Virus record (IMG/VR): IMGVR_UViG_3300027898_000010
Coordinates: 1-54,456 of that record
Length of the DNA: 54,456 nucleotides
Direction: 5' to 3' (one strand)
Source: a virus
Lineage: Duplodnaviria > Caudoviricetes
A program made the translations under genes and the position numbers. The notes beneath the pieces are model-generated. The model saw only the letters and a program-made list of their open reading frames with translations, was not told the origin of the DNA and made no database searches. This document shows, piece after piece, positions 5,720 through 54,456 of the stretch; positions within the stretch are counted from its first letter, which is position 1; each line of letters opens with the position of its first letter.

Positions 5720-5755
5720 GGCGTCCACGACAACCATGGGAGCCAGGAGCACACG

Positions 5756-6604: not shown

Positions 6605-6669
6605 CCACGAGCACGACCCGGCCGCCTGTGTGGGGCGGTCGGGACCAAACTAGAAACAGGGGAACGACG

Positions 6670-7899: not shown

Positions 7900-8141
7900 G
7901 GCCGCAAATGCAGTTGATGTGCTGCGAGCAAGTGATTGAGAACGAGATCAAGCATGGCGTGCGGCGCAAGGATGTGGCCATAACGTACGCGATGACGGTG
8001 CGATCCGAGGCCATGGGGCGCAAGACGAATTGGAAGCGGATCAACGCGGCCATACTCGCGAAGTGGGGCAGGCGCGGGCTGATGGCTGTCAAGAACCGTG
8101 CGCATGGAATTTTGGAAGGCCGGATAGACCCGTCGTCATAG
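7896..8141 (+). CDS. Hypothetical basic protein
   Basis: ATGA coupling, AAAGG upstream. Confidence 0.65.
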   Translation: MRPQMQLMCCEQVIENEIKHGVRRKDVAITYAMTVRSEAMGRKTNWKRINAAILAKWGRRGLMAVKNRAHGILEGRIDPSS

Positions 8142-8153
8142 GAGGAGCCAACC

Positions 8154-8426
8154 GTGGCCGATCTTCGAGACATGACGCATGATGAGGCGGAGCGGCAAAG
8201 GCATCGCAGCCATGAACGCCGCGATGCGGAATGTCATCAGTGCCCGTACTGCGATGCGTTGTCCGGCGTATCGTCGGGCACTCCTGACCCGGCCGTGCTG
8301 CGCTGTCACGATTGCGGGAGGAGCGTTGCCTTGGCCGACAGCGAGACGGTGTTGCGCTCGAGACGGACGAGGATTGGTCGGATCTCGCGCGTGACGTCAT
8401 CGCCGGTCTCAATAGCGATGTTCTGA
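8154..8426 (+). CDS. Small Zn-ribbon protein
   Basis: AGGAGG RBS, GTG start, CPYC...CHDC. Confidence 0.6.
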   Translation: MADLRDMTHDEAERQRHRSHERRDAECHQCPYCDALSGVSSGTPDPAVLRCHDCGRSVALADSETVLRSRRTRIGRISRVTSSPVSIAMF

Positions 8427-28939: not shown

Positions 28940-29506
28940 TCACTTCTTCTTCTGGTTGGGGACTGCGGGCGCCTTAACCGGCGCGGGGTCCGGCTCCGGT
29001 ATCGATGCCGCCGCTACCTGTGGAGCAACCGGACGCACATCAGGGACGGGCGTCGGCGCCTTGGGCTGCTGGATGGCCTGAGACGAGGCCAGCTGCGCCT
29101 GCGTAAGCTCGGCTCGCTTCTTCGCGCGCTCCTGCTCCTCGGAAAGGCGCCTGGCCTCTGCCGCATTATGGGTCGCGAGCGCATCGCCGACCAGCGCGGA
29201 CGTTTTCGCCTGAGCGGCCTGACGCGCCTCGCTGATGCGGCGGTTGAAGTCGGCATCCGCCGTGCTGACACGGGTGCGGGCGGATGCAAGAATTTGCTGG
29301 TTCTCTTGGGCGATGTCGATGGGCGGCAGGCCGTCGACCTTGAACGACGGATTGCGGCGAAGCTTCTCGATGATGGGATCGCCAGCGCCACCCGGAACGG
29401 GTAGCGGCACGTTCAGTTTGAAGTGATGCCCGAGCGTTTGAACCTCGGGGGGCGTGCTTCGATCGCCAGCAATGCCGACGTAGGTAACAGTGGTTTGGTT
29501 CGTCAT
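28940..29506 (-). CDS. Hypothetical virion protein
   Basis: AAGGAG RBS; ATGA coupling. Confidence 0.65.
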   Translation of the reverse strand: MTNQTTVTYVGIAGDRSTPPEVQTLGHHFKLNVPLPVPGGAGDPIIEKLRRNPSFKVDGLPPIDIAQENQQILASARTRVSTADADFNRRISEARQAAQAKTSALVGDALATHNAAEARRLSEEQERAKKRAELTQAQLASSQAIQQPKAPTPVPDVRPVAPQVAAASIPEPDPAPVKAPAVPNQKKK

Positions 29507-30177
29507 GGGAGTGACCGCTCCTTTTTAGGCTTGGGTCCAGTTGGACCCGCCGGTTCCGTAAGGGCTCGCGCTACTTGCCAGCCCGCCTTCAAACGCAACG
29601 ATATAACGGCTTGAGAAACGCCAATTTCACGAGCCCAAGCCGCGATCGTCTGCGACTTGCCTTGATACTGAAGGACGCGAGACGACCGGCGGTTGATGGC
29701 CTGCCCATTAGGCGTTGACCACGATACGTTACCTGGCTCGTACCCGCGCGAGTTATCGCTGCGGTCCACCGAGTAACCAGGTCCTGGCTTAGGACCAATG
29801 TGGTCGATGAATCGCTGGAAGCCTTCCGGCCCATGCCACTCTGGACACACCTTGATTCCGCGACCGCCATATCTCCCGTAATCCTTACTATTAAGGTTGT
29901 GACACCGGGCAATCATGCCAAGCCACGTGTTGTACTCAGAAGTGCGCTTACCCTTGCGACCATGGCCATGAACCGTGTGAGCCGCACTGTTGCGATCGAA
30001 CAGATCACATCCACAGCTTACCGACCTAGGCAGGTTTGAGTGACGAACCTCCTTTGCCCCGCCGCACTCACACCGCACCAGCCAACGCGCCTTTCCGTCT
30101 GGAGCCTTGGGAGCCGCCGCTTCGACCGTTAAGCGCCCGAAGCGGCGACCAATCATGTCTGGTATCGATCTTGCCAT
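29503..30177 (-). CDS. HNH-type homing endonuclease
   Basis: GRRFGRLTV...WLVRCECG...SCGC...YGGRGIKVCPEW...SVDRSDNSRGYEPGNVSW; inserted after the capsid gene. Confidence 0.85.
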   Translation of the reverse strand: MARSIPDMIGRRFGRLTVEAAAPKAPDGKARWLVRCECGGAKEVRHSNLPRSVSCGCDLFDRNSAAHTVHGHGRKGKRTSEYNTWLGMIARCHNLNSKDYGRYGGRGIKVCPEWHGPEGFQRFIDHIGPKPGPGYSVDRSDNSRGYEPGNVSWSTPNGQAINRRSSRVLQYQGKSQTIAAWAREIGVSQAVISLRLKAGWQVARALTEPAGPTGPKPKKERSLP

Positions 30178-30228
30178 TGTGGCCTCCTTCTTAAATCAGG
30201 AGAACACAATGTATATTCCTATTGGGGG

Positions 30229-31407
30229 TTAGCCAAGCTTAACAAAGGCAGTTACACAGCTATTGTCGATATAGTTTCCGCCCTGCATGTTGCGCTGGAA
30301 TTTATTGCACCCGCGGCATTCCGTGATTCCGATGCCTTTCAGGTGCCCGTAGTCGTCGTCCTTGCGTTCGCGGAAGTCGGCATCCATGCCAAGACCGACC
30401 GCGATGGCCTGCGCGCCGACCAGGATGGCGCGGCCGTAGGCACCGGCAACGCCGGGGATGGTGCCGGCACCGATCGGGGTCATTTCCTGGATCTTACGGA
30501 TGATGCACCCGTTCCATTCCAGGTCGCCGCCGGTGCGCATCGGGTTCTTGTTCCAACCCGAGCCCTCACGAGCCCGCGCGTTCTGATTGAACGCCAGAAT
30601 GTCGGGATCGTACTGCGCCTGAGCGAAGGTAAAGGGATCGCAGAAGATCACCCAATATTCCTCGCCGTCGTCACCGATCTCGATGGGCGTCATGTGCGGG
30701 TTGGCCAGTTCGGCCGCCATCTTCATGCGGTCGACAATGTGGGCGCCGAACATATCGGTCGCCGCGTTCACGTTGCCGATCGAGGTCGCGAAATTGCCGG
30801 CGGCAAGGTTGGTCGAAGCGCCACCGAACACGATGCGGTCGGCGTTGTTCGTGGTCCAGGTGTTGAGCTGGGCGGGAGAGGCCTGGCTCGAGATAATGAC
30901 CGGGGCCGGATCGCCCGGGAGCACCTGCGTCGCATCCGGGTTGACCAGCGACGGCAGGATGGTGACGCCGGGAGAGACGGAGAACATCGCGTCGATAATC
31001 GCGTCGCGAAGCTGCTCCTTCGACCAGGTCATCAAGTGCGGCCGAACCTGCGGCAGCGCCTTGGCGAAGGTCATATGCTCGTCGCGTTCGGTGAGCAGCA
31101 CGCCGTTACGGAAGTACTCAACCGTGACGTTGTGCGAGAACCGCGCCAGGTCTTCTTCACGGCCCGCGAGCGGCATGTTGCCAGCAACGCCGCGCTTCTG
31201 CAGACGGCCCATGATCGGGAAGGTGATATTTTGACCACCCTTCTTCAGCTGCACGTCGATCTGAATGGGCATGGTGGCGTCCATGCCCATATACTTGTTA
31301 AAGCGATTTGTACGAACGTATTCAGTCATATACGTCGTTTTGAACAGCGGCAGATTGAAGCCTGACGGGTTCAAGGATTCAGTGCCGTAGCCTACTGCGT
31401 AAGACAT
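30229..31407 (-). CDS. Major capsid protein (DUF4043/N4-gp56-like)
   Basis: LKKGGQNITFP...PLAGREE...AILVGAQA...DDDYG; follows the scaffold gene. Confidence 0.85.
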   Translation of the reverse strand: MSYAVGYGTESLNPSGFNLPLFKTTYMTEYVRTNRFNKYMGMDATMPIQIDVQLKKGGQNITFPIMGRLQKRGVAGNMPLAGREEDLARFSHNVTVEYFRNGVLLTERDEHMTFAKALPQVRPHLMTWSKEQLRDAIIDAMFSVSPGVTILPSLVNPDATQVLPGDPAPVIISSQASPAQLNTWTTNNADRIVFGGASTNLAAGNFATSIGNVNAATDMFGAHIVDRMKMAAELANPHMTPIEIGDDGEEYWVIFCDPFTFAQAQYDPDILAFNQNARAREGSGWNKNPMRTGGDLEWNGCIIRKIQEMTPIGAGTIPGVAGAYGRAILVGAQAIAVGLGMDADFRERKDDDYGHLKGIGITECRGCNKFQRNMQGGNYIDNSCVTAFVKLG

Positions 31408-31436
31408 AGAATGGGTGCTCCCCTAAGCGGTTCAGA

Positions 31437-32429
31437 TTAGGCCGTCTGACGCTGCCCCTGGTCCACGCCGAGCCGCGCGTTCTTGCGCTGATCGAACATG
31501 GTGGCCAGGGAAGCCTTGGTGTCAGGCGGCGGTGCTGCCGGCAGCGTTCCGGTGCGGGGTACGCCCCCGAACGATGGCGGCAAGCGCGGCGGATTGGTGG
31601 GGGGCTGCTGACCGGCCGGAGCGCGCTGCTGCGGTGGTTTGCCTTGGGCCGAAGCGACCAGCTGAGCGAGAGCGTTCGGGTCCTGCAGCAATTCCTGGAA
31701 CACCGCCTGACGCACCGCGTCGGGGGAGCCGCCATATTTCTGCGTTGTGACCTGCGTCTGGTACCACTGACACGCCGCGACGACGGGATTAGGCCGCGCC
31801 ATGAACGAGTCTTTGAGACCAGCCGCCACCGCGGCATGCGTTGCTGCCTTGATGAGATCGCGCCCATAGACCGCCTCCGCGATGGAGTCGGACATATCGA
31901 GCTTGAGGTTTACGATCTCACCGCGGGCCTGCCCAAGCATGCCAACGATCGTGCTTTCAGCTACTTGCCGAACGACAGCCTGGATGGTTCGGGCGTACCC
32001 GAGCGGGTCCTGGATGACGTCCGGGATCTGGAAGTCCGGTGCAGCGGCTGGTGCCGGTTGCTGCCCCTGTGCGGCCCCCTGAACGAAGCCCCGCAGTTCG
32101 GCAATTTGAGCCGCCTGCTGGTTGAGCGCGGCAAGTAGCTGCTGAGACTGCGTCTCTGCAGTACGTGCGCGCTCGGTTGCTTCACGGAGACGAAACGACG
32201 GGACTAGGCCTTGGTCACCACCCTGCTCTTGCGACGGCGCCCCCTGTTGTCCCTGCGGTTGGCCTTCGTACTCCTGCTGGCCAGCGGGAGCGCCAAATGC
32301 GCCGTAGTTGTCATCGGGGGTCGGTGAAGGGCCACTCTGGTGGCCAGCTGGGAGGTTGTCGCCGCCAAAAGCAGCCACAAGGGCCGCCTGTGAAGCTTCA
32401 ACCGAGGGGACGGTGGCAGTTCCGGTCAT
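31437..32429 (-). CDS. Scaffolding protein
   Basis: Gln/Pro-rich, VPSFRLREAT coiled coil, directly upstream of the capsid gene. Confidence 0.75.
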   Translation of the reverse strand: MTGTATVPSVEASQAALVAAFGGDNLPAGHQSGPSPTPDDNYGAFGAPAGQQEYEGQPQGQQGAPSQEQGGDQGLVPSFRLREATERARTAETQSQQLLAALNQQAAQIAELRGFVQGAAQGQQPAPAAAPDFQIPDVIQDPLGYARTIQAVVRQVAESTIVGMLGQARGEIVNLKLDMSDSIAEAVYGRDLIKAATHAAVAAGLKDSFMARPNPVVAACQWYQTQVTTQKYGGSPDAVRQAVFQELLQDPNALAQLVASAQGKPPQQRAPAGQQPPTNPPRLPPSFGGVPRTGTLPAAPPPDTKASLATMFDQRKNARLGVDQGQRQTA

Positions 32430-32619
32430 TTCTCGCGCCTTTCGTTGCGTCGATCACGTCAAGTTTTGCCCCTTCTCGGCGGGGTGCCGTCTTGCTTGGG
32501 GGAGCCCGCTCAAGCGGCGCGGAGCCTCGTGTCGTGAGGCCAGCCCGGATCGGCGACGCATTACATCCAGACACCCGGAGCCGACCGGGTGGAACGCGGA
32601 ACCCAACAAAACGGAAAAT

Positions 32620-32635
32620 TGTTTCATGTGAAACA
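32620..32635. promoter_or_regulatory. parS-like palindrome TGTTTCATGTGAAACA
   Basis: 15/16 match to the bacterial parS consensus TGTTTCACGTGAAACA; intergenic. Confidence 0.7.
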
Positions 32636-32731
32636 TCTGCCAGAAACGCGGCATAGCTGAGCAAAATCAGCGCGAGAGAGCAGCGTCAATCCGACGAGAG
32701 TGGAAAAAGCGACAGAGTGGCGGAATAGATA

Positions 32732-32746
32732 TGGAAAATATTTCCA
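32732..32746. promoter_or_regulatory. Operator copy TGGAA-AATAT-TTCCA upstream of the helicase module
   Basis: Perfect match. Confidence 0.7.
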
Positions 32747-32798
32747 CATTCGAGTAATGGTCGGGTCGCCACCAGGCACCTAACCAAGGGGATCGACC

Positions 32799-35180
32799 AT
32801 GACGCCAACGAAAGAGCAGAGCGAAGCGCTCGAAAAATTCGCCACCGGCAAGAGCCTGCGCATCGGAGCCTTTGCGGGTTCGGGCAAGACCAGCACGATG
32901 AAGCTGCTATCCCGATCGACCTCGCGTGCCGGGGTGATGATGTGCTTCAACAAGAGCATCGCGGAGGACGCGGCCAAGAGCTTCCCTCGCAACGTTTCGT
33001 GCCAGACGACGCACGGGATGGCTTTCCGCTCCATGCGGGACGCCTACTCCACCGAGAAGCTGACGGGATCGCTGAACGGCGGATTCGTCGCCGCCAAGCT
33101 CCGCATCAACTCGCAGGACTACGGGGCTGGCATGGTGGTTCGTGGCCGCCAGCACGCCTTTCTGATCGTAGAAACCCTAAAGCGCTGGATGCGCTCCGAC
33201 CGCCCCCAGGTGATGTGGTTCGACGTTCCGCTCGACGGCAAGCTTTCCACGTTGACCGATGATCTGGCCAAGCAGGTGGCCTTCCGCATCGCCAAGGACG
33301 CCCGCGACGTTTGGGAGAAGATGATCGACCCCAGGCACGAATTGCCGCTTGGGCACGACGGATACCTGAAGGCATGGGCGATGAAGCGGCCGGAGATCCC
33401 GTGCGACTTCCTGGTGCTCGACGAGGCTCAGGATACGAATCCAGTCGTGCTCGGGATTTTAAAAAATCAGCAGGCCCAGACTGCGTGTGTCGGCGATGCG
33501 CACCAATGCCAACCGGCGGGCACGATGGTGGCCGTTGTCACGAAGAAATCGACCAGTGGAGCCAAGGCCAAGGGCGCGACTTCTGCACGTGCGGAATGGG
33601 AGAGCGTGCCGATCGAGCGGATCAAGAGAGGCGATCGCGTCGTCTCGTACAACATCAGCGGGCGGCATCTGCGGGCCGACGGCGACCTCGTCACCAGGGT
33701 GGCTAGCCGTCAATTTTCAGGCAACCTCGTCCGCGTTTTTGTTGGAGGAAAGGTCATCGACTTCACGCCAAACCACCGATGCGTCGTCAAGATCAATGGC
33801 GGCCTAAAAGGCAAGCACGTCGTCTATTTGATGCGAAAAGGAGGTTCGTTCCGGATCGGTAAATCACAGGCTGGCTACACATCCCAGCATGGGCAACTCG
33901 GATTCATGGCCCGAGCATCTAACGAGGGCGCTGAGAAAGTGTGGGTTCTCAGTATTCACGACAGTGATCGGGAGGCGCGCATCGCAGAGGCGGTCACGGC
34001 TGCAAAATTCGGACTTCCAGTTATCATGTTCAAAGACAGCATGGCAAAGTCCAGATCCGCCAATCGCAACGGCGATCAGGCATACATAGACGCCGTATTT
34101 TCCGCGTTGGGCGATCTCACGCACAATGCCATCGCTGCTCTAAATGCCCATGGCCGGCATCTCGAATACCCAATCTGGAGGAAGGGCGCGGCAAACCTGA
34201 AAAATCGCCGAGTCACCGAAATCCACGCCTGCAATCTTATGGATGGAATGAACTTCATCAGTGGCTCAGAGCGTGGGCACGGGCGCCCGGATATGGCTCC
34301 CATCAAAGTCGAGCGCATCCCGTTTAGCGGCATCGTCTACTCGATCGAGGTTGCCAACGTCAAAACCTACATCGCAAACGGCTTCGTGACGCACAACTCC
34401 ATCTATCAATGGCGCGGGGCGATGAACGCGATGAAGGAACTCCCATGCGAGCAAGAAGCGCGGCTCTCGATGTCGTTCCGCTTCGGGCAAGCCATCGCCG
34501 ACGAAGCGACCGACGTGCTGCGGCTGCTGGGCGAAACGCTGCCCTTGCGCGGCAACCCGAACATGGCAAGCATGGTCGGGCCGGTGGAGCTTCCCGACGC
34601 GGAGTTGTTCCGCACGAATGGCCGCTTGATCGAGGCCCTGATCGACTACATCCAAACCGGCTTGCGGCCGATGGTAGTGGGCGGAGTGAATGATATCCTC
34701 GCCATGGTCGACGGCAGCGAGAAGCTGATGCGCGGCCAGCCGGTAGAGTACCCGCTCGAACTGTTCGGGTTCTCCCACTGGGGTGAGGTTCAGGAGGCCA
34801 GCGAGCGCGAAGACGGCCAGGAACTGCGCCGCTGGGTCCGGCTGATCGACCAGCATGGCGTCGATGGGCTGCGTAAGGCCCTGACGGGGCTCCCGACAAG
34901 CGAAGCCAACGCCAACGTGATCATGAGCACCGGGCACAAATCCAAGGGCCGCGAGTGGGGCAAGGTCCGGCTCGAAGACGATTTCCTGCGCAACGTGACC
35001 ATCGACGGAGAGGCATCGCGAGCAAACTTCGCCGCCGGAAAATTCGATGAAGAACTACGGCTGTTCTATGTCGCGATGACGCGAGCCGAAATGCAAGTCG
35101 AGATCCCGGAAAGCTTAACCGAGAAGGTCGCCGGGCTGAGCGGGATCATGAGGGAGCCAGGATTTAGGAGGGCAGCATAA
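32799..35180 (+). CDS. UvrD/Rep-like SF1 helicase containing an intein
   Basis: AFAGSGKT, DEAQD, VGDAHQ|SIYQWRGA split by the intein, STGHKSKGREW, LFYVAMTRA. Confidence 0.9.
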   Translation: MTPTKEQSEALEKFATGKSLRIGAFAGSGKTSTMKLLSRSTSRAGVMMCFNKSIAEDAAKSFPRNVSCQTTHGMAFRSMRDAYSTEKLTGSLNGGFVAAKLRINSQDYGAGMVVRGRQHAFLIVETLKRWMRSDRPQVMWFDVPLDGKLSTLTDDLAKQVAFRIAKDARDVWEKMIDPRHELPLGHDGYLKAWAMKRPEIPCDFLVLDEAQDTNPVVLGILKNQQAQTACVGDAHQCQPAGTMVAVVTKKSTSGAKAKGATSARAEWESVPIERIKRGDRVVSYNISGRHLRADGDLVTRVASRQFSGNLVRVFVGGKVIDFTPNHRCVVKINGGLKGKHVVYLMRKGGSFRIGKSQAGYTSQHGQLGFMARASNEGAEKVWVLSIHDSDREARIAEAVTAAKFGLPVIMFKDSMAKSRSANRNGDQAYIDAVFSALGDLTHNAIAALNAHGRHLEYPIWRKGAANLKNRRVTEIHACNLMDGMNFISGSERGHGRPDMAPIKVERIPFSGIVYSIEVANVKTYIANGFVTHNSIYQWRGAMNAMKELPCEQEARLSMSFRFGQAIADEATDVLRLLGETLPLRGNPNMASMVGPVELPDAELFRTNGRLIEALIDYIQTGLRPMVVGGVNDILAMVDGSEKLMRGQPVEYPLELFGFSHWGEVQEASEREDGQELRRWVRLIDQHGVDGLRKALTGLPTSEANANVIMSTGHKSKGREWGKVRLEDDFLRNVTIDGEASRANFAAGKFDEELRLFYVAMTRAEMQVEIPESLTEKVAGLSGIMREPGFRRAA
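33507..34397 (+). mobile_element. Intein (297 aa) in helicase motif III
   Basis: Starts CQPAGT, block B FTPNH, ends VYSIEV...YIANGFVTHN|S; removal restores GDAHQSIY. Confidence 0.9.
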
Positions 35181-35530
35181 TGTGCACGGTTGAGCAGAAG
35201 AAGATCAAGAGGATCAGAGAGTTTTGGTATCGGCAGCAGGGGGCGTGCTGCTTCTGGTGTCAGCAGCCGGTTCCGCCCGATGAGGCGACGGCCGACCACA
35301 TCATCGAACGGTCGAAGGGCGGGCGCACCACGATCGAGAACATCCGCATGGCCTGCGCCCATTGCAACTGGCACCGCTCGAACGGGCCGCGCTACGATGC
35401 CCACGTCAAGGCCCGACAGAGGCACCTGGAGGGACTGCGTCCGAATTCCCTGCCCAAGACCATGATCAAAGAAGGCCTTCGCGAGATTGAGCGGCGCAAC
35501 CGAGAGCAGCCGATCGGTGCCAGCCCATGA
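35180..35530 (+). CDS. HNH endonuclease
   Basis: CFWC...TADHIIERSKGG...NIRMACAHCN. Confidence 0.85.
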   Translation: MCTVEQKKIKRIREFWYRQQGACCFWCQQPVPPDEATADHIIERSKGGRTTIENIRMACAHCNWHRSNGPRYDAHVKARQRHLEGLRPNSLPKTMIKEGLREIERRNREQPIGASP

Positions 35531-35787
35531 GGATGCCGAACCTTGTGACCAGGCGTCTCGCGCCGGACCCAGCGCCGCCGGAGGCAGCCAACGGGATCGA
35601 GTTTGAGTCGATGGACGATCTAGCCGACCGCATCGACACGCAGAAGGCTGCCATCGCAAAGACGGTGGCCAAGCTGCAGCAAGAGAACGAGAACCTAGAC
35701 GATCTGATCCGGCAAATGACCACGATCATCGAGGCGCGGCAGGTGTTGAACCGCACAAATCAACCGTACGTTTTCGAGGAAGACTGA
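35527..35787 (+). CDS. Coiled-coil hypothetical protein
   Basis: ATGA coupling; heptad pattern. Confidence 0.65.
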   Translation: MRMPNLVTRRLAPDPAPPEAANGIEFESMDDLADRIDTQKAAIAKTVAKLQQENENLDDLIRQMTTIIEARQVLNRTNQPYVFEED

Positions 35788-35788
35788 C

Positions 35789-35980
35789 ATGCCGACAGAT
35801 GGCTTCACTTGGCTGCGGTTTGTGCCGCACACGCGGGTAGCCGATTACGAGAGCGTCGGCTGGGAGTTGAGCGACGACCTTTCGACGTGCCACCACGGCC
35901 AGCACGCGGTGATCATGAGGTGGGCTGGAGAGGGCTACCCGCGAGCGCCGGTCAACGCGTGGTCCGATCCGCAAGGGTAG
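35789..35980 (+). CDS. Small hypothetical protein
   Basis: GAGG RBS; tight spacing. Confidence 0.6.
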   Translation: MPTDGFTWLRFVPHTRVADYESVGWELSDDLSTCHHGQHAVIMRWAGEGYPRAPVNAWSDPQG

Positions 35981-36032
35981 CCTGCGCCCGGCCGCCGTAC
36001 TACAATGACGACCCCAGCAACGGAGCACCGAC

Positions 36033-36347
36033 ATGAGTATGTCCGACATCCGAACCTATACGCGCCTTGTCGTGCACAAAGCGCGGCTGGACGCCGACGA
36101 CGTGATGCTGGCGGCGATCGATAGAGCCGTCGTGGAAATCATGTTCATGGTCCGCCAGGATGCGGCAACATACCTGAGCGGTGCCGGAGAGTGCTCCGCT
36201 GCCGCTACGCTCCTGGCCATGACGGATCGCCAGCACGAAGGCTTTCAGGCGTTGACGCGAGACGACCTTATGGACGCTCTTCGTCGCCGGGGGGAGGAGA
36301 GCCGTCCGGCAAAGTCCTTGACGCCATCAGATCCCGCTCACCCTTAA
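36033..36347 (+). CDS. Hypothetical protein
   Basis: GGAG RBS. Confidence 0.65.
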   Translation: MSMSDIRTYTRLVVHKARLDADDVMLAAIDRAVVEIMFMVRQDAATYLSGAGECSAAATLLAMTDRQHEGFQALTRDDLMDALRRRGEESRPAKSLTPSDPAHP

Positions 36348-36696: not shown

Positions 36697-39024
36697 CTAT
36701 CGGGTTGCGAGTGCGGGTCCAGGCGCGCCAGGGCCATCCTGGGGCGGAACAGGCATGCCGCCGGGTTGGCCAAGGCGCGGCGCCTGGCCGGGAAGAACGG
36801 GTGGGGGCGGGGGCATAGCCGCCCGCGGCAATGGAGGGCCGCCAGATGGCGGTGCAGGACCACCTGGCGGCATTCCCGGGGCGCCAGGAAGGGCCACGCC
36901 CACGGGGTTCATAAAGGCATTCATGGTTGAGTTCGGGTTTCCGGGGCCGCCCATCTGCGAGACGATGGTGGGCGATCCCCAGACGATCGGGAACTCCTGG
37001 AACATCTGCGGCGTGGCCATCGAGGCGACCAGCTGCGCCATGGCGTCGGCGCGCGTCTTCTCGCCCTTGGCAATCTCGCTGTCGACCTTGGCGGCAGCAA
37101 GCAGCGCTTCGAGTTCGGCCATTTTCGCCTGCATGGCGACGGCTTGCGGATTGGGCGCGGTTGCCTCATCGATGAGAGCAAACAGCCGGTCTTTGTTCGG
37201 CACGCCGGAGAGCGTGATCAGGATCTTACCCATCGGGGTCAGCGCGGTCGGCCCCATTTGAGCGAGCTTGTCCATAAGCTCCTCGTTCATGGTGACGGTG
37301 TCGGGGCCTTCCTCGATGATGATATTGACGTCCATTTGAGCAACGTCGTTCCGGATCGTCATCTGGCCGGTCTGGGGGTCCTGCACCGGCTGGTTGATGC
37401 CGATGAACTTGAAGCCCTTGTCGTCGTCGGTGACGGAGAACCATAGCTCTTGGGTCCAGAACTGGCGCACGAGAAGCCAGTTGCGGCGGTAGCTGGTGAT
37501 CTTGAACTCGCGGTGGCGCTCGAAGATCGGCGACATTTCCGTCATGCCGGCATTCTGCTTTGCCAGGATCGCACGGCCAGACTGCGACTCGGTACCCTGA
37601 CCCTCGCCCATCATGGCGGGGTTCGGCCCGTAGTTCGCCATCTGCGAGACAGCGACCTCCAAGAGCTTCGCCTGCCCGGCGATCTCCGAATCGAGCGTGA
37701 CGATTTGGAACTTCTTGTCGATGCCGTCCTTGCCCCTGGGGTTCAGCATGATCACGCCGTCTGGGCGCTTGGCTTGCTCGCGGGCGTGGTTCACGTCGTC
37801 AACGGCGCCCTTATCCGCGATGATCTGCCGGACGGACATCATCCACAGCAGACGCGAGTGGCGGGCGTTGATGGCGTCCTGAATGGGGATCAGGTCCTTG
37901 ACGACGCCGTAGCGCTCGCCGCCCTCGTCGACGTTGCACGAGGAAGCGATGATAGGGCAGTAGGTCTCGCCGTCTTCATCGACGTAGAGCGAAGGCTCGT
38001 CGTAAAGCTTGATCGCGCCGCAGAAGTAGCAGCACCGCCACTGGCCCTTGTACCGATAGTACAGGTGCACGATGCGGACGCGGCCAAGGACCGACGACCA
38101 CCACTCTGACTTGACGCGGGACCACTCGCCTGGAACGCCGCCCGAGCGGGTCGGATCGCCAAGGCCGGAGAGCGAGCGCATCATGTCGGCGCTGTCGGGC
38201 CGCCCGAGCTTGTCGAAAAGCTCCTCGGCGTCCTCGATATCCATCCACGTCCACTCGCCAAGGAACTTGGCGTCGGCGAAGTCCCAATCCATCGAGCGCG
38301 GGTCGTAGATGAACTGGATTGCCGGAATGCGCCGGTTCTTCAATTCGACCTTGTTGGTGAAGCCCTTTTGCTCGGCGCCTTGCCACATAGCGCCAATGCC
38401 ACGAACGAAGAAGTCGCGGCCTGCCTCGCTAAACAGGATCGGCGCGCGATTCTGGTCGTGGACCTCGCGCAAGGCGGCCGTCGCCGCATCGCAGTCGCCT
38501 TCGTGCTTGGGCGTGCGGGGCTGAGCCTTCGGATCGCGCCGAAGGCGTTGCTCGATACCGATGTACGAATCGACCTTCTTGCGCAGCTCGTTGAAATAGG
38601 TTGGCGGTTGGGACCGGCGGGCAAAGATGGCCAGCTGCTCGGGCGTGAACTGCTTGCCGTGATAGTACCGCTCGTACCCCAACTGATTGACCAGCTCAGG
38701 CAGCTTCGTGGCAATCCAGGCCTGATACATTTCGACCAGGCGGGAGCCGGGCAAGCCGTCCTCGCCGCCGGTGTACTGGTTGCCCTTGGCGACCCGGTCC
38801 ATGGCCGCGCCGCTTGAGCCGACAGACGGGCCGCCCTGCGCCTCGATGCCGAACATGCCCGCCACTTCGCTCTGCGGATCAGCATCGGCCATCGGGTCCA
38901 TATCGATGGGGTCGTGGTTGATTCCGGCGGAGGCAAGAGCCTGCTGCAGCTGCGCAAGCGCATCCCCGCCAGACGGTGGTCCCGGCATGGAAGGGGGTTG
39001 CGGCTGTGGCTGCTGATTGAACAA
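36697..39024 (-). CDS. Portal protein (P22-like) with Pro-rich termini
   Basis: RYYHGKQF...YDPRS..WDFADA...YGVVKDLIPIQDAIN...SGRAILAKQNAG; start codon uncertain. Confidence 0.9.
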   Translation of the reverse strand: MFNQQPQPQPPSMPGPPSGGDALAQLQQALASAGINHDPIDMDPMADADPQSEVAGMFGIEAQGGPSVGSSGAAMDRVAKGNQYTGGEDGLPGSRLVEMYQAWIATKLPELVNQLGYERYYHGKQFTPEQLAIFARRSQPPTYFNELRKKVDSYIGIEQRLRRDPKAQPRTPKHEGDCDAATAALREVHDQNRAPILFSEAGRDFFVRGIGAMWQGAEQKGFTNKVELKNRRIPAIQFIYDPRSMDWDFADAKFLGEWTWMDIEDAEELFDKLGRPDSADMMRSLSGLGDPTRSGGVPGEWSRVKSEWWSSVLGRVRIVHLYYRYKGQWRCCYFCGAIKLYDEPSLYVDEDGETYCPIIASSCNVDEGGERYGVVKDLIPIQDAINARHSRLLWMMSVRQIIADKGAVDDVNHAREQAKRPDGVIMLNPRGKDGIDKKFQIVTLDSEIAGQAKLLEVAVSQMANYGPNPAMMGEGQGTESQSGRAILAKQNAGMTEMSPIFERHREFKITSYRRNWLLVRQFWTQELWFSVTDDDKGFKFIGINQPVQDPQTGQMTIRNDVAQMDVNIIIEEGPDTVTMNEELMDKLAQMGPTALTPMGKILITLSGVPNKDRLFALIDEATAPNPQAVAMQAKMAELEALLAAAKVDSEIAKGEKTRADAMAQLVASMATPQMFQEFPIVWGSPTIVSQMGGPGNPNSTMNAFMNPVGVALPGAPGMPPGGPAPPSGGPPLPRAAMPPPPPVLPGQAPRLGQPGGMPVPPQDGPGAPGPALATR

Positions 39025-39122
39025 GCGGTGCGGCTCCGATCAGGGATGCCCATGCGTGGGCAGCTTTCGAGCCGTCGTCAATCCGACAGCGCCAATTGCA
39101 CGGAAGGGTGTGGCAACGAATA

Positions 39123-39194
39123 TGGAATATTTATCCACATTTGCTGGTGGCGGGCGTTTCTCCAGTTGCAATGTGGAAGGATTTTCCCCATCAT
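39123..39194 (+). promoter_or_regulatory. Two near-match operators (39123-39137, 39174-39188) and a candidate promoter TTGCAA-17-CATCAT
   Basis: TGGAA-TATTT-ATCCA and TGGAA-GGATT-TTCCC upstream of the second inserted module. Confidence 0.6.
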
Positions 39195-39235
39195 GGGTGG
39201 GCATCAGGCTACCAAGCCAGACAACGGAGACGAGC

Positions 39236-39472
39236 ATGGCCACGCTAGCGCGCATAGACGACACCCTGATCGCCCGCATCCTGGACATGATCCTCCACGA
39301 TCAGCGCGACGAGATCAACGAGGCTCTGGCCGATCAAGCTGGCGACGAGACAGCACCGCAGATCCAGGGCATCCGCACATTCGAGGAAGTCGGGGTTCTG
39401 ACCACCGACGAAGGCCTCGTGATCCGGCTGAACAACGGCCAGTGCGTCTACCTCACCATTCAGGTCCAATAG
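39236..39472 (+). CDS. Small acidic protein
   Basis: GGAG RBS; IRTFEEVGVLTTDEGLVIRLNNG. Confidence 0.7.
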   Translation: MATLARIDDTLIARILDMILHDQRDEINEALADQAGDETAPQIQGIRTFEEVGVLTTDEGLVIRLNNGQCVYLTIQVQ

Positions 39473-41189: not shown

Positions 41190-41435
41190 CTAGTTAGTGT
41201 CGGGGTCGACAAGCTCGCGCCGCTGGTTGCCGACGACGACAACGGCACCGCGCCGGGTGAGACGCGCCAGGCAGCCGTAAGCGCTAGCCTCGTTCTTCCA
41301 GCCCATGTGCAGCGCAATGGCCTTGTTAGACGGGAACCCGCGACCGGCGTCGATCTCGGCGCGAACGAAGTCGAGTACGCGCTGCTGCTGGGGCGGGAGC
41401 AGACCCGATGGACGGCGCAGAAGGGGCAAGCTCAC
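41190..41435 (-). CDS. LexA N-terminal-like winged-helix protein
   Basis: QQRVLDFV...GFPSNKAIALHMGW...LARLTRRG. Confidence 0.75.
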   Translation of the reverse strand: MSLPLLRRPSGLLPPQQQRVLDFVRAEIDAGRGFPSNKAIALHMGWKNEASAYGCLARLTRRGAVVVVGNQRRELVDPDTN

Positions 41436-43264
41436 GGTGCGCTCTCCATCATTTCGATCCGGCGCCCGATCCAGCGCATGACGTTGACAGCCATCGAGTT
41501 ACCGAGCGCTTTGTAGCGTGGGCCATCGGCGGCGGGCTTGCCGCGGTAGGGAACCGCAGAATATCCTCGCGGGAAGCCCTGCAAAAACTCGCACTCTTCG
41601 ACCGTCAATCTTCTGACCTGCCAACTGGTGAGTGTTGATTTACCTTCACTGCTTGCGGGTCGCCGTACTTTTTGAACCGCTGATAGTGCTTGTCGCAGTA
41701 GCCTAACCCCTTCTGCGGCTTCCCACAGATCGTGCATGAGCCTTTCGGCTTGTGCTCCTCGTTGTGACAACTCCGACAAATACGCTCCAAGTTCTCGGGC
41801 GAGTTGTTGAGATGGTTGCCATTCTTGTGGTGGACATCTCTCGCCAAAGGATTCCCGCAGCGATTGCACGGCCCCTGCGGAACGATCTTCCTCGCGTGAT
41901 AATGCGCAGTAGACCACCCAACGTCTGGAGAATGCCGCTGGTCGAAGTTCGCTGCCATGCAGCGCTGATCGCAGAATTTCCGGCGATTGAAGTGTATCAA
42001 GTATTCCAAGTCCCCATTGGGCAAACGCTTCCTCTCCAAGCGCGCTGCGCACTCCACGCAATAGCGCTCCGGAGTCGGTTTGCGATGGGCAGGCATGGCA
42101 TTCTCCCGAAAACTCTAACAACGTAATAGCAGCCGGATCGCTGCCCGTATTCAGGCAATCCGTGACGTCGCCGGTCTCGTAGCAGCCGTCATTCCCCGTA
42201 GTGCGGTAGGCCAGCGTCGGCGCGCGGCCGTGGGCTGGGATCGGATGACACGGATCTCCCTGCGCCGGGTTGCTGCGATTGGCGGCGCTGGTGATCTGGG
42301 TCTCGTCGAAGACAACCGGCAACAGTCGGCCCGCAAACGCATCTTGTGTCGTGCCGCCCTTGTTTCCTGCCGTGTCGAGTGTGCCAGCCACGGCCACGAA
42401 CGTCTCGCTCTCGAAGTCAAAACGCCCCGAGCCGCCGTGCGCGGTCTGCGCGTTCGCTACGTCGATCGGACCGGCTTGGTTGTTACCGCCGAATGCGAGC
42501 AAGCTGTCGCACGTATCAGCGTCGGTGCCATATGGTCTATCACCGCCTGTAGAGTTTCCGCCCGCCCGCAGGCACGGCGCAACATCGCTCGCGATCAATC
42601 CTCCGTCGCAGTCGAAGTCGGTTCCAAGTCCGCCACCGCCCTTAGTGCGCGCGCTAAGAGTGGGGGCAGGGTTTTGCCCCGCTTGGCGGCGCGGCGGAGA
42701 ATTCCCGAGCAGGCTCTCGCGCTCAAATAGTACCGCTGCGGCACGTCGCCAGTCTCCAGCACATCCGACAACGAACACACGCCGTCGTCGTTGAGGGACA
42801 GCCCGGCCAAACCCGTCCACTCGGACAAACTGAGCGTCCAGCACTCGGTAGGCGAGACCATACCCGCATTCTGCCAGCCCTCCGAGGATGGAGGCGAAAG
42901 CCCCTCCCCGGTCCATGCTGAGCACACCGGGGACGTTCTCCCAGATGACCCAGCGGGGGCGCAGGCGGCGAGCCAGGAGGCAAAATTCGAGCGCCAGGTT
43001 ACCACGCTCGTCATCCAATCCGCCTCTGAGACCGGCGATGCTGAACGACTGGCACGGGGTGCCTCCGACGAGAACATCGATAGCTGCATAGTCGTTGGCC
43101 CCAATCGTTGTAAAATCGCCGTGCAGCGGTACGTGCGGATAGTGGTGCTTCAGGACCGCGCGCGGAAACGCCTCGATCTCGCTGAAAAACGCCGGACGCC
43201 AACCGAGCGGATGCCAGGCGACGGACGCAGCCTCGATGCCGGAGCAGACGGAGCCGTAGATCAA
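41432..43264 (-). CDS. DNA cytosine-5 methyltransferase
   Basis: SVCSGI, GGTPCQ, WENVPG, QRRRRVF, RRLTVEECEFLQGFP, YKALGNS. Confidence 0.9.
   Translation of the reverse strand: MIYGSVCSGIEAASVAWHPLGWRPAFFSEIEAFPRAVLKHHYPHVPLHGDFTTIGANDYAAIDVLVGGTPCQSFSIAGLRGGLDDERGNLALEFCLLARRLRPRWVIWENVPGVLSMDRGGAFASILGGLAECGYGLAYRVLDAQFVRVDGFGRAVPQRRRRVFVVGCAGDWRRAAAVLFERESLLGNSPPRRQAGQNPAPTLSARTKGGGGLGTDFDCDGGLIASDVAPCLRAGGNSTGGDRPYGTDADTCDSLLAFGGNNQAGPIDVANAQTAHGGSGRFDFESETFVAVAGTLDTAGNKGGTTQDAFAGRLLPVVFDETQITSAANRSNPAQGDPCHPIPAHGRAPTLAYRTTGNDGCYETGDVTDCLNTGSDPAAITLLEFSGECHACPSQTDSGALLRGVRSALGEEAFAQWGLGILDTLQSPEILRSALHGSELRPAAFSRRWVVYCALSREEDRSAGAVQSLRESFGERCPPQEWQPSQQLARELGAYLSELSQRGAQAERLMHDLWEAAEGVRLLRQALSAVQKVRRPASSEGKSTLTSWQVRRLTVEECEFLQGFPRGYSAVPYRGKPAADGPRYKALGNSMAVNVMRWIGRRIEMMESAP
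41605..42096 (-). CDS. HNH endonuclease nested out of frame within the C5 MTase
   Basis: GGGAG RBS; CVEC, FCDQRC, CNRC...DVHHKNGNHLNNSPENLERICRSCHNEEH, CTIC...YCDKHY. Confidence 0.85.
   Translation of the reverse strand: MPAHRKPTPERYCVECAARLERKRLPNGDLEYLIHFNRRKFCDQRCMAANFDQRHSPDVGWSTAHYHARKIVPQGPCNRCGNPLARDVHHKNGNHLNNSPENLERICRSCHNEEHKPKGSCTICGKPQKGLGYCDKHYQRFKKYGDPQAVKVNQHSPVGRSED
42595..43089 (-). CDS. Alternate-frame ORF resembling the M.EcoHK31I beta polypeptide
   Basis: WQNAGM...CWT...CSLSDVLET...YYLSARACSGILRRAAKRGKTLP, nested in the MTase 5' half; resemblance judged from memory. Confidence 0.6.
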   Translation of the reverse strand: MQLSMFSSEAPRASRSASPVSEADWMTSVVTWRSNFASWLAACAPAGSSGRTSPVCSAWTGEGLSPPSSEGWQNAGMVSPTECWTLSLSEWTGLAGLSLNDDGVCSLSDVLETGDVPQRYYLSARACSGILRRAAKRGKTLPPLLARALRAVADLEPTSTATED

Positions 43265-46197: not shown

Positions 46198-46538
46198 GAT
46201 ACGATCTCCGGGGCTGGGCCTGCGAGGCGCTTGATGCGAGCAAGGTTGCGCTTGGCCTGCTTTACGAGGTCGAGCGCGACGTTGAAGCGGTGCTCGGCCT
46301 GCTGCAGGGCCTTTCTGCTGGTCGCAACCCGCTTGTTGATCCGAACTCTGCCGTCGGGCAGATCTTCCATGAGCGGGATACTCCGCACATCGGCGTAGGC
46401 AGCCTTGGCGCTTTCGAGAAGCACCTGGGACTGAGCGCGGTACGCTTCGGCCGTCTTCACGTCGGCAGCAGCGTCGGCCAGCGGGTTAGGCTCAGACGGC
46501 GTGTGTGAGGCTGTGGTGGGCGTGTGGAGCGTGTTCAT
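46194..46538 (-). CDS. Helical hypothetical protein
   Basis: ATGA coupling with the MTase stop. Confidence 0.6.
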   Translation of the reverse strand: MNTLHTPTTASHTPSEPNPLADAAADVKTAEAYRAQSQVLLESAKAAYADVRSIPLMEDLPDGRVRINKRVATSRKALQQAEHRFNVALDLVKQAKRNLARIKRLAGPAPEIVS

Positions 46539-48778
46539 GCGGCCTTCTCTTTGCGTTTGGGCTTCGCCTTCGGCTTCGGCTCGGGCTTTGCGTCTGGTGC
46601 CCAGCCGCGCTCGGCCACAACGTCGGCATAGGGAACCCGGGTGCCGTCGGGCTTTTCGAGGAACACCTTGTCGTAACCACCAACGAAGGTAGCCCACCGG
46701 TTGAGGGCAACGTCGACGTATGGGGGGTGGAGTTCGACGGCGTAGGCGATGCGGCCGGAAAGTTCGCAGGCCATGATGGTGGTGCCCGAGCCGCTGAACG
46801 GCTCATAGATCGCTTGGCCGGCGGTGGAGTTGTTCTCGATCGGGCGCTGCATGCAGGCGATGGGCTTCTGCGTCGAGTGGCCCGTCTCGGACTTGCGATG
46901 CTCGATGTGCCAGGTGGTCGATTGCTTACGGCCACCATGGTACTGACCCGGGTTACCGTCTTTCACGGCATAGGCGAGATCGTCGTGCTCGACATCGAAG
47001 CGGTCGGTCCATTGGTCCTTGGGGGACTTCGAGGCGAACGCGCAATTGTGAGTGACGATGCCGTCAGCAACGTAGTGCTCGTCTTTATCGACGTCGATTG
47101 AGTAGACCTCACCAACAAAAGGCTCGAACTCAACGCACTCAATGGTGCGCCATTCGAAGTTGTCTCCATCGGTCGGAACTGGAACCTGCATGATGCCAGG
47201 GACCAAATTACAAGCGGCTACACGCTTTGATTGTGAGCGGCTTGACCTCTCTCCATCTGCGCAGATAAGAGGGCGATGTTGGCTGAGGCCGAAATCGCTG
47301 AATAGGCGAGAGACGCCATCAGCAAGGCGATGGTGCCCGATCTTCAAATAGATTGCGGCGACATGATCCTTGTTGCGATGCACGTCGACCTTGTCTGGCT
47401 GACGCGCGGACGCTTCCCAGCAAGTTGTCGGGATGCCGTACACACAGCTGGCGACCTGTTCGGCAACCTGAGCCGACTGCGCGTCATCATGGGCCGACAA
47501 CACCCAGGCCGCGTCCGCTCCTTCTTGGCGACGGCGAACAGCAAGCCCAAATCCCAGAGAGTTGAACAACCGGCAGCGCCCCACTCGCCAACGCTCTCCA
47601 GAGCGCATCAGGTACACAACGTGCATGTCTGCCGCGTCGGGGGAGAAGCGAACCGTGAATGAATGCTCTGCGGTTGCGCGCGTGAGTAGATCGCCGACGC
47701 GGATAGAATGCATGTTCCCGTCATAGTCGCGCCTCACCGCCTTAGTCACGGCCCGGCCGCGCTTGCGAACAACGCTCTCGTAAGCGTTATAGCTAACGAC
47801 ATGATCGCCATCTTTGAGGGTTTCAATTGGGACCAATTCTATGTCTGCGAACGTCCCCTGACGCCCAACCTCAGTCGCGTGAGCTTCTACAACTTTTTGC
47901 ACCAAAGTTCCCGCCGGCTGGCACGGCTCATGCTGCCAATGGTAGTCGCCGCGGCTGATCGCCAGGCGGGGATTCACCCAAATGATCTGGCTCCGGATCT
48001 TGAATTTGCAGGCCTTCAGCGACTGGTAGACGACGTCGGCCATCACGCCAGCGTGCCACACGTAGGCGACGGAGCCGGGGAACAGCGCCCACGCCTCGCG
48101 CCAATCGGCCTGGTCGTCGTTCAACACCTTGCCCTTGGCCGTGTCGGCGCCGTTGGCGAGCCCAGCGCCATCGCGCCACGAAGCGTCGTACTCCACGCCA
48201 TAGGGTGGATCCGTGACCATAAGGTGCGGCTTAACCTTACCCAGCAACCGACCGACGACGTGGGCCTCGATCGAGGAACCGCAGATGATGCGGTGATCAC
48301 CAAGGTGCCATAGGTCGCCGGGCTCGGAGAGCGGGTGCTCGGGCGGTTCCGGAGTGGCCTCGGCGCGCTCCAGGTCGTCTTCCGTTAGGAGGAGCTTATT
48401 CAGTTCGTCCAGATCGAAGCCGGTCATGGCCAGATCGAAGTCGAGCGCCTGTAGCGCCTCCAGTTCGGACGCGAGCACGTCATCGAGCCACTCCGATTCC
48501 TGAGCGACCCGATTATCCGCGAGCCGATACGCTTTCACCTGCGCGGGTGTCAGGTCGTCGCCAACGGTGACCGGCACTCGCTTCAGCCCAAGCTGCTGCG
48601 CGGCCTTGAGACGCGTGTGCCCCGCGATGATCACGCCATCCGCGTCAACCACAATTGCGACGCGGAACCCTAACTCTCTGATGGAAGCCGCAACCTTGTC
48701 GACGGCCTTTGCGCTGATGGCGCGCGGGTTACGATCGTATGGCTTAACCCGCTCGATGTCCCAAAGAGCAACCTTCAT
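46535..48778 (-). CDS. ParB-N domain + N4/N6 DNA methyltransferase containing an intein
   Basis: PYDRNPR...IIAGHTRLKAA...YRLADNR; TDPPYG; HSTQKP; YEPFSGSGTT. Confidence 0.9.
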   Translation of the reverse strand: MKVALWDIERVKPYDRNPRAISAKAVDKVAASIRELGFRVAIVVDADGVIIAGHTRLKAAQQLGLKRVPVTVGDDLTPAQVKAYRLADNRVAQESEWLDDVLASELEALQALDFDLAMTGFDLDELNKLLLTEDDLERAEATPEPPEHPLSEPGDLWHLGDHRIICGSSIEAHVVGRLLGKVKPHLMVTDPPYGVEYDASWRDGAGLANGADTAKGKVLNDDQADWREAWALFPGSVAYVWHAGVMADVVYQSLKACKFKIRSQIIWVNPRLAISRGDYHWQHEPCQPAGTLVQKVVEAHATEVGRQGTFADIELVPIETLKDGDHVVSYNAYESVVRKRGRAVTKAVRRDYDGNMHSIRVGDLLTRATAEHSFTVRFSPDAADMHVVYLMRSGERWRVGRCRLFNSLGFGLAVRRRQEGADAAWVLSAHDDAQSAQVAEQVASCVYGIPTTCWEASARQPDKVDVHRNKDHVAAIYLKIGHHRLADGVSRLFSDFGLSQHRPLICADGERSSRSQSKRVAACNLVPGIMQVPVPTDGDNFEWRTIECVEFEPFVGEVYSIDVDKDEHYVADGIVTHNCAFASKSPKDQWTDRFDVEHDDLAYAVKDGNPGQYHGGRKQSTTWHIEHRKSETGHSTQKPIACMQRPIENNSTAGQAIYEPFSGSGTTIMACELSGRIAYAVELHPPYVDVALNRWATFVGGYDKVFLEKPDGTRVPYADVVAERGWAPDAKPEPKPKAKPKRKEKAA
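47045..47923 (-). mobile_element. Intein (293 aa) in the MTase
   Basis: WQHEP|CQPAGT...ATAEH...VYSIDV...YVADGIVTHN|C. Confidence 0.9.
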
Positions 48779-49260
48779 TTATGCCTCGCGAATTCGCCGT
48801 GGTATCTCTCCGCGGCCACCGCGCGAGCAGCGGCTGCCTCATCTATGGTGTCGAATCGACCCAGCGCGATTTTCTTGTTGTTCACGCTGATCATGGCGCA
48901 CCATTTCTGCCTCTCCTCTGACCAGCACACACCTTTGACGCCGGACTTGTTGCGACGCGGAGCTGGGGTGTTCCACCCGTTCTCCGCCTTCGTCGCGAGC
49001 CGTAGGTTGCATATCCGATTGTCATCCTTCACGCAGTTGACATGGTCAACATTGGTGCTCGGCCACTCCCCATAGTGGATCGCCCATGCCAAGCGATGGG
49101 CAGCCACCGTTTTGTAGCGGCCGGAAATTATGAACCCTATGATCTGGTATCCGCGATGCCGGGCGCCAATGATCGGCGTGCTAGATCGCCATACGCCGGT
49201 CTGAGGGTCGTAGCCGATGCAATCGCGCAAAGCAGAGATAGACCACACATCTATCTTCAT
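48775..49260 (-). CDS. HNH-AP2 homing endonuclease
   Basis: YDPQTG, AHRLAW, VDHVNCVKDDNRICNLRLAT, SGVKGVCW...LGRFDTIDEA. Confidence 0.9.
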   Translation of the reverse strand: MKIDVWSISALRDCIGYDPQTGVWRSSTPIIGARHRGYQIIGFIISGRYKTVAAHRLAWAIHYGEWPSTNVDHVNCVKDDNRICNLRLATKAENGWNTPAPRRNKSGVKGVCWSEERQKWCAMISVNNKKIALGRFDTIDEAAAARAVAAERYHGEFARHK

Positions 49261-49267
49261 CGGTTCC

Positions 49268-49693
49268 TCACATGAGAGCAGGTGGCCACCCAGCGCTATC
49301 GATCTGCGCCGTGGTGGTGATGGTTGGGGGGACGGCATTGATGCCGGAGAGAACGATTTGCAGCACCGGGCGCGCAAGTGCCGTGTCGGCGCCGGCCGCG
49401 ATCAGGGCACCGTACTTGTTCTTGAGGTAGGTTGTGAGTTGCTCCTTGAGCGGCACGGGGGGCGGCTGCGTCAGGGCCATGGCCTCGGCTGCCGTGATCT
49501 TGGGCAGCGACGCATGGGGCAGGTCGAGACCGCGGTTTATGGCGTTGGCCTGGTCCTGCGCCGAGAGGAAATACACGGTGCCCTTGGCGTCCTTCGTATA
49601 CATATCGGCAAAGGACGAGGCGAGCGCCAGCGGCGCGGGTGGCGGGGTTACAGGTGCAGGGGTAGGGGGAGTAGCGGGCGTTGATATCGTCAT
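49268..49693 (-). CDS. Tail-fibre assembly chaperone-like protein
   Basis: Follows a fibre gene; KDAKGTVYF...ITAAEAMALTQPPP...WP. Confidence 0.55.
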   Translation of the reverse strand: MTISTPATPPTPAPVTPPPAPLALASSFADMYTKDAKGTVYFLSAQDQANAINRGLDLPHASLPKITAAEAMALTQPPPVPLKEQLTTYLKNKYGALIAAGADTALARPVLQIVLSGINAVPPTITTTAQIDSAGWPPALM

Positions 49694-54280: not shown

Positions 54281-54456
54281 CTAATCTAACCCCTTTCGGT
54301 GCTTCCTGCGAAGACGCGCGGCATAGTCCATGGCGGTTTGTACCTCATCTCGGCGCTTCTGAGCCGCGTTCGCAGCGGCCTCATGCTGCCTGCGCATAAA
54401 TTCGGCCATGTTGAACGCGCCAGCATAGCGGCGCGGGTCGACGGGGCCACGCGGGT
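54281..54456 (-). CDS. C-terminal part of a gene entering from the right edge
   Basis: Open frame ...RRYAGAFNMAEFMRRQHEAAANAAQKRRDEV...KGLD*. Confidence 0.5.
   Translation of the reverse strand, partial: PRGPVDPRRYAGAFNMAEFMRRQHEAAANAAQKRRDEVQTAMDYAARLRRKHRKGLD

Follow-up and report, generated by a model that had tools for sequence, protein, structure and literature searches.

The viral DNA analysed in this study, a stretch of 54,456 bases that we refer to as the window, contains between two divergently transcribed sets of genes a 16-base palindrome, TGTTTCATGTGAAACA at positions 32620-32635, which deviates at a single position from the consensus of the chromosomal parS site. Judged from its sequence and from the company it keeps in bacteria, we regard this 16-mer as a true parS variant of the chromosomal type, one that forms part of bacterial parS clusters. 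We consider it plausible, with a probability of about 40%, that the site would be bound by a ParB protein of the host, which is not encoded in the window, and that this interaction would matter to the phage. The proposal, which originates from a previous sequence-only reading of the same DNA, is now better supported and can overall be regarded as partly supported.

The starting point of that reading, a site one base off the chromosomal parS consensus, is borne out by direct inspection of the sequence. In a comparison with the consensus TGTTNCACGTGAAACA, 15 of 16 positions are identical and the single mismatch is a C to T exchange at position 8. Both 7-bp inverted arms of parS (TGTTTCA and TGAAACA) are perfect and the centre reads TG where parS has CG, leaving CATGTG in place of an intact CACGTG core. 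The site is the sole match to parS in the window, irrespective of whether up to two or up to three mismatches are allowed, and the heptamers TGTTTCA and GTTTCAC each occur only once, in both cases at this location. At up to one mismatch, the base composition predicts 0.0016 strand-hits per window, equivalent to about 0.0008 sites. As a singleton in 54 kb (at up to three mismatches) with neither a ParA-type ATPase nor an HTH_ParB domain in the window, the site belongs to no parS cluster and neighbours no parAB locus. The 16-mer was in either orientation not found in print in the literature searched. Reads of the same phage were detected in all four of four freshwater runs, and among the read variants listed none falls at 32620-32635, with cover being thin outside the likely source run. 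An explanation of the TG centre as avoidance of a CACGTG restriction site was dropped, since other palindromes are similarly depleted: the window contains 4 copies of the hexamer compared to 12 expected (z = -2.3), a deficit that does not exceed that of several other palindromes and that offers a hint only.

The assignment of the 16-mer as a parS variant rests on its distribution in bacteria. Exact copies are found at 132 or more loci of species genomes. Within a subset of 80 such loci that were fetched, corresponding to 73 contigs, a second parS-like site with up to one mismatch is located within 5 kb at 46 loci (39 contigs), and in 19 contigs the additional nearby site is a perfect canonical parS. 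The same arrangement is evident in scans of four whole alphaproteobacterial genomes, which carry between two and seven clustered sites each with the variant among them, compared to no copy of a mirrored control sequence in any of the four. All three sites of the Rhodobacter genome reside within 5.7 kb and all six of Marinicaulis within 3.4 kb, whereas six of the seven sites in Rhodospirillaceae are confined to 2.5 kb and the two sites in Roseovarius are 1.9 kb apart. As to recognition by ParB, both arms correspond to known targets: the heptamers GTTTCAT and GTTTCAC are, in the portion of the study accessible to us, among the six that are at least 4-fold enriched at ChIP-seq summits of ParB from Pseudomonas aeruginosa (PMC5961200). 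An intact CACGTG core is important for the binding of this protein and parS5, which contains the same central change and one other, is its weakest site in vitro (PMC4368675); according to the same accessible portion of the ChIP-seq study, parS5 is also the sole predicted site of P. aeruginosa that is not bound in vivo (PMC5961200). A separate observation concerns a metagenome-assembled genome of Aestuariivirga sp., where thirteen dispersed copies of a repeat of about 200 bp end in a parS-like 16-mer, which is the TG-centre variant in seven copies, TGTTTCACGTGGAACA in five and a mixed form in one, with the palindrome AAATTGACTCTGTCAATTT forming the opposite end. This repeat may be a miniature element that carries parS, and since its copies are dispersed, the 16-mer also exists outside of centromere clusters.

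The variant is also enriched in viral contigs. Among the viral contigs of IMG/VR it was detected in at least 125 stretches, compared to 13 for the mirrored control and 31 for an arm-swapped control that was built from the same 7-mers, so that its frequency exceeds that of these two matched 16-mers by a factor of at least 4-10. A G+C content of 0.55 or higher was found in 13 of the 125 listed stretches with the variant and in none of the 13 with the mirrored control. When 29 variant-bearing viral records of at least 15 kb were searched for ParB_N, two gave a match, one of them over the cut-off, as opposed to none of 13 control records; among nine carriers that are near-complete (98% or above), a ParB_N gene is present in one and absent in eight. 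A ParB_N protein is encoded in one viral contig of small size that carries the variant twice. Since one complete record with terminal repeats combines the site with two tyrosine recombinases, in this case again without ParB_N, such orphan sites are not confined to phages that lack an integrase. At viral loci of low G+C content, 20 of the 62 sites fall within a long open frame, compared to a background of 72% and to 12 of 13 for the control, but because the stop codon contained in the motif blocks one of three frames, the expectation is lowered to about 48% and the preference for intergenic positions is thus only moderate. Host flanks, plasmids or misclassified DNA may account for some of the enrichment among viral contigs. 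The viral carriers of high G+C content were considered as potential relatives of the phage and rejected, with only one of them (L014) sharing a distant terminase-like stretch.

Searches for relatives provide a view on the history of the site. A blastn search of positions 30000-36000 against cultured phages gave no match, and tblastn searches with the portal, capsid and helicase sequences recovered only distant relatives of 24-35% identity, which are too remote for judging whether the site is conserved. Relatives of the capsid protein were found neither in the viral-contig nor in the species-genome collection and relatives of the helicase were not found in the viral-contig collection; where capsid homologues were identified, they are at most 59% identical. 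Conservation in related phages, which the sequence-only reading had regarded as informative, was not encountered in the sole two relatives found, metagenome sequences (L127 and L128) whose capsid proteins are only 53-54% identical to that of the phage. In both, the genes for the portal, a 1404-residue protein, the scaffold and the capsid run in one direction, and the stretches covered, of 17 kb and 8.7 kb, contain neither a helicase island nor a parS-like site (at up to three mismatches) nor a copy of the dispersed palindrome that is described below. The 335-residue open reading frame preceding the capsid gene of L127 is the equivalent of a 330-residue frame of the phage. Between portal and scaffold, the phage contains an island of plus-strand genes (32799-36347), whereas in L127 a single gene on the structural strand (2650-6864), encoding the 1404-residue protein, occupies the same interval. 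By this comparison the island appears to be a replacement that is particular to the lineage of the phage and, since both island and site are absent from the two relatives, both would be lineage-specific or recent.

The absence from both relatives would be in line with a palindrome without function, which either arose by chance or is the decayed relic of, for example, a host-derived parS that was mutated in its core. This neutral origin, which we regard as somewhat unlikely, would account for the presence of a single copy with a mismatch in its core and for its absence in relatives, although only two of the latter were found. Among point changes, CG to TG is the most frequent type, and the chance level is in truth above 0.001, as any known motif could have been recognised. 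Still, the window would be expected to contain about 0.0008 such sites and the one that is observed is placed in an A+T-richer regulatory gap and not in coding DNA. A neutral origin is also at odds with the persistence of the same variant inside bacterial parS clusters and with its excess over matched controls in viral contigs.

A second explanation relates to those parts of the genome that are not contained in the window. The DNA, which was recovered from freshwater metagenomes and has a G+C content of about 0.62, constitutes the whole of a linear IMG/VR entry with a CheckV completeness of 73%, and both ends of the contig are cut through genes, so that the genome did not turn out to be complete. 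On the left, a minus-strand gene that starts at position 61, with an ATG overlapping the stop codon of the gene before it, runs off the end of the window (1-61), and on the right a minus-strand frame (54281-54454) enters from the end. The two terminal frames would be in frame with each other if the contig closed into a circle without overlap, but at that end an open frame is found in two of three phases anyway; a search for homologues of the end frame found none. In six-frame searches of the 54-kb window, no match to Phage_integrase, Resolvase, AAA_31 (the ParA-type family) or HTH_ParB was detected, while control genomes were matched, and the general scans against Pfam and PHROGs brought up no protelomerase. 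The previously noted lack of an integrase, recombinase or ParA thus stands for these 54 kb but does not extend to the phage, as the contig is rated 73% complete. A 364-residue open reading frame beside the repressor gene (395-1489) was considered as an integrase and rejected, since it has no family match and no relative in the PDB, and its look-alikes in the atlas belong to no family.

The remainder of the map describes a phage with a temperate-type switch, a feature of the sequence-only reading that is upheld by a CI-type reading frame on the plus strand (2038-2670), where a family scan located HTH_3 and Peptidase_S24 domains at 2038-2667. This frame is open from position 2038, yet it contains no ATG, GTG or TTG before 2296 and the ATG upstream sits in another frame, possibly as a result of a frameshift, an error in assembly or an unusual start. 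It is followed on the same strand by an early operon (2853-8400) that by family scans encodes an exonuclease, RecT, a DUF2303 protein and a protein of 165 residues with a helix-turn-helix of the DnaA domain-IV type (6628-7125; Pfam Bac_DnaA_C, E 3e-13), which resembles the C-terminal part of DnaA chains of known structure. A long minus-strand block (8470-32429), which holds the genes for tail, lysis, head closure and capsid, ends in the 330-residue frame, and is succeeded by the plus-strand island at 32799-36347. Besides the helicase gene with its intein-like insert, this island comprises an HNH gene and small open reading frames, several of which were left without assignment in the family scans. 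Further to the right, a gene for a P22-type portal on the minus strand (36697-39024) is followed by another island of plus-strand genes, among them one for a methyltransferase, and by a minus-strand block reaching to the right end, which codes for the two subunits of the terminase in addition to a C5 methyltransferase, a ParB_N fusion and a replication-type protein with DUF1376. In the fusion protein of 747 residues (46535-48778, minus strand), a ParB_N domain at the start is combined with an intein and an N6_N4 methyltransferase. That it lacks a helix-turn-helix of the kind that reads parS, as had been noted before, agrees with the Pfam and PHROGs assignments and with the absence of HTH_ParB in six frames. 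The family scans also identified an 81-residue LexA_DNA_bind protein. Intein-like insertions are found in two genes, those for the helicase (32799-35180) and the ParB_N-methyltransferase (46535-48778), the C5 methyltransferase (41432-43264) matches its family in two separated stretches and there are three free-standing genes of HNH endonucleases (29503-30177, 35180-35530 and 48775-49377). Selfish inserts are thus numerous in this genome. Look-alikes of the lysis genes are most frequent in Pseudomonadota, and the host is probably a non-sporulating bacterium of high G+C content.

With a quarter of its genome missing, the phage could be a plasmid-prophage with a parAB locus of its own, for which the site would serve as one of several dispersed centromeres in the manner of N15. 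The incomplete record with its cut ends and the lack of an integrase in 54 kb would be in line with such a lifestyle, and so would the ParB_N protein encoded in the small contig mentioned above and the distribution of operators over at least seven regions, which is reminiscent of P1 with its dispersed C1 operators. We nevertheless find this scenario distinctly improbable, as neither ParA nor HTH_ParB is encoded in the 54 kb, as eight of the nine near-complete viral carriers of the variant are devoid of a ParB_N gene, and as the site follows the chromosomal consensus, whereas the ParB proteins of plasmids and phages normally use site sequences of their own.

The location of the site is relevant to a possible regulatory role. 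As had been proposed, the 16-mer is intergenic and resides in the divergent capsid/helicase region, which is confirmed by the map of open reading frames and the family scans. The intergenic region of 369 bp (32430-32798) separates a leftward operon, containing the scaffold-like and capsid genes, from the rightward helicase island. On its left, the 330-residue open reading frame (31437-32429, minus strand) has no family match and is regarded as scaffold-like from its placement, as it immediately precedes the gene for the major capsid protein (30229-31407, minus strand; Pfam Phage_capsid_3, E 8e-35; phrog_334). On its right, a UvrD/RecD-like DNA helicase with an intein-like insertion (32799-35180, plus strand) is the first gene of the island, whose start is 164 bp downstream of the parS-like site. 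A frame of 66 residues (32454-32654, minus strand) overlaps the site but has no family match and was not taken for a gene, leaving the 16-mer in a region that is richer in A+T and outside of coding DNA. An Rfam search of positions 32300-32900 gave no match and a simple scan of the gap (32430-32798) for the sigma-70 consensus did not locate a promoter.

The main regulatory signal of this gap is not parS but a palindrome of 17 bp that is dispersed over the genome. The motif GTGGAA-N5-TTCCAC has 10 matches in the window at up to one mismatch compared to 0.08 expected, a number that was reached in none of 100 shuffled sequences, and an eleventh copy with two mismatches. Often extended to TTCCACATT, it is spread over at least seven regulatory places: copies are located beside the repressor (1901, 2712 and 2752), in the gap between scaffold and helicase genes (ATGGAAAATATTTCCAC, 32731-32747), in the divergent gap on the portal side (39122 and 39173), after the gene of the large terminase (43695), upstream of the replication gene (54229 and 54251) and inside the structural block (16120 and 18558). 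The copy at 32731-32747 is likely the real operator of the region. The half-sites resemble the consensus of the DnaA box, of which a relaxed 9-mer is found four times in the window compared to 1.12 expected, and the DnaA domain-IV type protein at 6628-7125 is a candidate for binding the palindrome, which may be the target of a phage regulator or of host DnaA acting genome-wide. The gap shares further features with its counterpart on the portal side. A 12-mer, CGTCAATCCGAC, occurs exactly twice in the window, at 32684-32695 and at 39076, and marks a module of about 110 bp that can be aligned between the two divergent gaps (32684-32800 and 39076-39240), which form the left borders of the plus-strand islands. 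The complement of this 12-mer contains the hexamer TTGACG (32685-32690), which might act as a -35-like element for leftward transcription, although this can only be weakly inferred since the consensus scan found no promoter; if it were a true -35 element, the parS-like site would fall into the early leader of the scaffold/capsid transcript.

In such an environment, the 16-mer could also be the operator of a phage regulator that is unrelated to ParB, or a signal for replication or packaging that adjoins the helicase gene, with its likeness to parS being coincidental, an option to which we give little credence: it draws on the position of the site in a regulatory gap at a distance of 95 bp from the phage's own operator, on a left flank (GGAAAATTGTTTCA) that is 79% like that of the operator (GGAAAATATTTCCA), and on the presence of potential binders in form of the CI-type repressor, the DnaA_C-type and LexA_DNA_bind proteins and the unassigned small frames of the island, but a match to parS in 15 of 16 positions is very unlikely to arise by chance, the region 32600-32650 contains no match to the dispersed palindrome at up to two mismatches and with spacers of 3-8 bp, and there is no second copy or half-site in the window, whereas the operators of dedicated regulators usually recur.

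Binding by ParB of the host would offer a coherent explanation for these properties. In the mechanism we envisage, a dimer of host ParB would recognise both arms of the 16-mer, close as a CTP-bound clamp and slide onto the flanking phage DNA. The loaded protein could then tie a phage genome that is not integrated, be it newly injected, in a carrier state or a plasmid-like prophage, to the ParA/SMC segregation system of the host, as phi29 does with Spo0J. As a second effect, loaded ParB could dampen one or both of the divergent transcription units, which is conceivable because the site is located between the operator module and the scaffold/capsid genes, upstream of the helicase. Recognition by ParB, the host that would supply it, a persistence as episome or in a carrier state and any influence on transcription are inferred. 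Binding by host ParB is supported by the occurrence of the variant in chromosomal parS clusters, by an enrichment in viruses that mostly lack ParB_N and by the precedent of phi29, and it is weakened by the single copy of the site, the mismatch in its core and its absence in two relatives. If host ParB were indeed loaded, a temperate-looking freshwater phage would use the centromere signal of the chromosome, and the strategy of phi29 and Spo0J would reach beyond the entrapment in spores, thus giving phages an uncomplicated way to persist stably in a carrier or plasmid-like state that does not require partition genes. Since the variant is enriched in viruses and most of its carriers have no ParB_N, such a device may be common. 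In a further generalisation, which we deem unlikely, orphan host-type parS sites would be a widespread means of phages to load ParB-CTP clamps of the host rather than a peculiarity of phi29, with one or a few mostly intergenic copies present in many phages that lack ParB; in the present case, the site beside DnaA-box-like operators would turn the control region into a copy of the cis-acting signals of the host origin, by which expression and inheritance would be coupled to replication and segregation of the host.

A comparison with known systems places these findings into context. The P1 parABS and N15 sopAB systems likewise contain a centromere-like site on a phage genome, but both rely on their own ParA and ParB and on site sequences of their own, none of which are seen in the window. 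In N15, the partition sites are located among phage genes, far from sopAB, and affect late expression. The chromosomal parS clusters near the origin of Bacillus, Pseudomonas and Alphaproteobacteria belong to the same family of 16-bp palindromes. Whereas chromosomes usually carry parS in clusters, the site described here is a singleton that resides on a phage and not next to parAB. The sole ParB-like domain of the phage shows the architecture of ParB_N-N6_N4 methyltransferase fusions, and nothing links such fusions to parS. In the sections of the pertinent article that were available, these proteins, in which ParB_N adopts the CTPase fold, are described as enriched in phages and prophages and as devoid of the parS-reading helix-turn-helix (PMC12704722).

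That a single site can be sufficient is known from B. subtilis, where one chromosomal parS stabilises a plasmid through the ParAB proteins of the host. The same is stated for P. aeruginosa (PMC4368675). A mobile element that contains only the cis-acting site, and depends on ParA and ParB of another replicon, is exemplified by SGI1, which, as far as described in the available part of the report, has stolen parS sites and employs ParAB of the IncC plasmid for its own stability; the same part indicates that SGI1 differs in carrying two copies, in mimicking a plasmid-type parS, in the experimental demonstration of binding and in not being a phage (PMC10954446).

The closest parallel is found in phi29, besides which a search of the literature on phage parS sites used with host ParB returned nothing directly on point. 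This phage of Bacillus subtilis contains five parS sites of the host type and uses Spo0J of its host for entrapment in the spore (PMC2731898, with reference to Meijer et al. 2005), a case that is mentioned as well in PMC9437464. What the two phages would have in common is a chromosomal-type parS on a genome that encodes no ParB to bind it, a combination that is seen here in the 54 kb of a record that is 73% complete. They differ in that phi29 combines five sites with a linear genome that is replicated by protein priming, and with a sporulating host in whose spores it becomes entrapped, whereas the phage described here contains one site with a mismatch in its core, a CI-type repressor and a P22-type portal, and probably infects a non-sporulating host of high G+C content. 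In light of phi29, the use of a host-type parS by a phage is not new in kind; what differs here is a single core-mismatched site in the divergent control region of a repressor-bearing phage.
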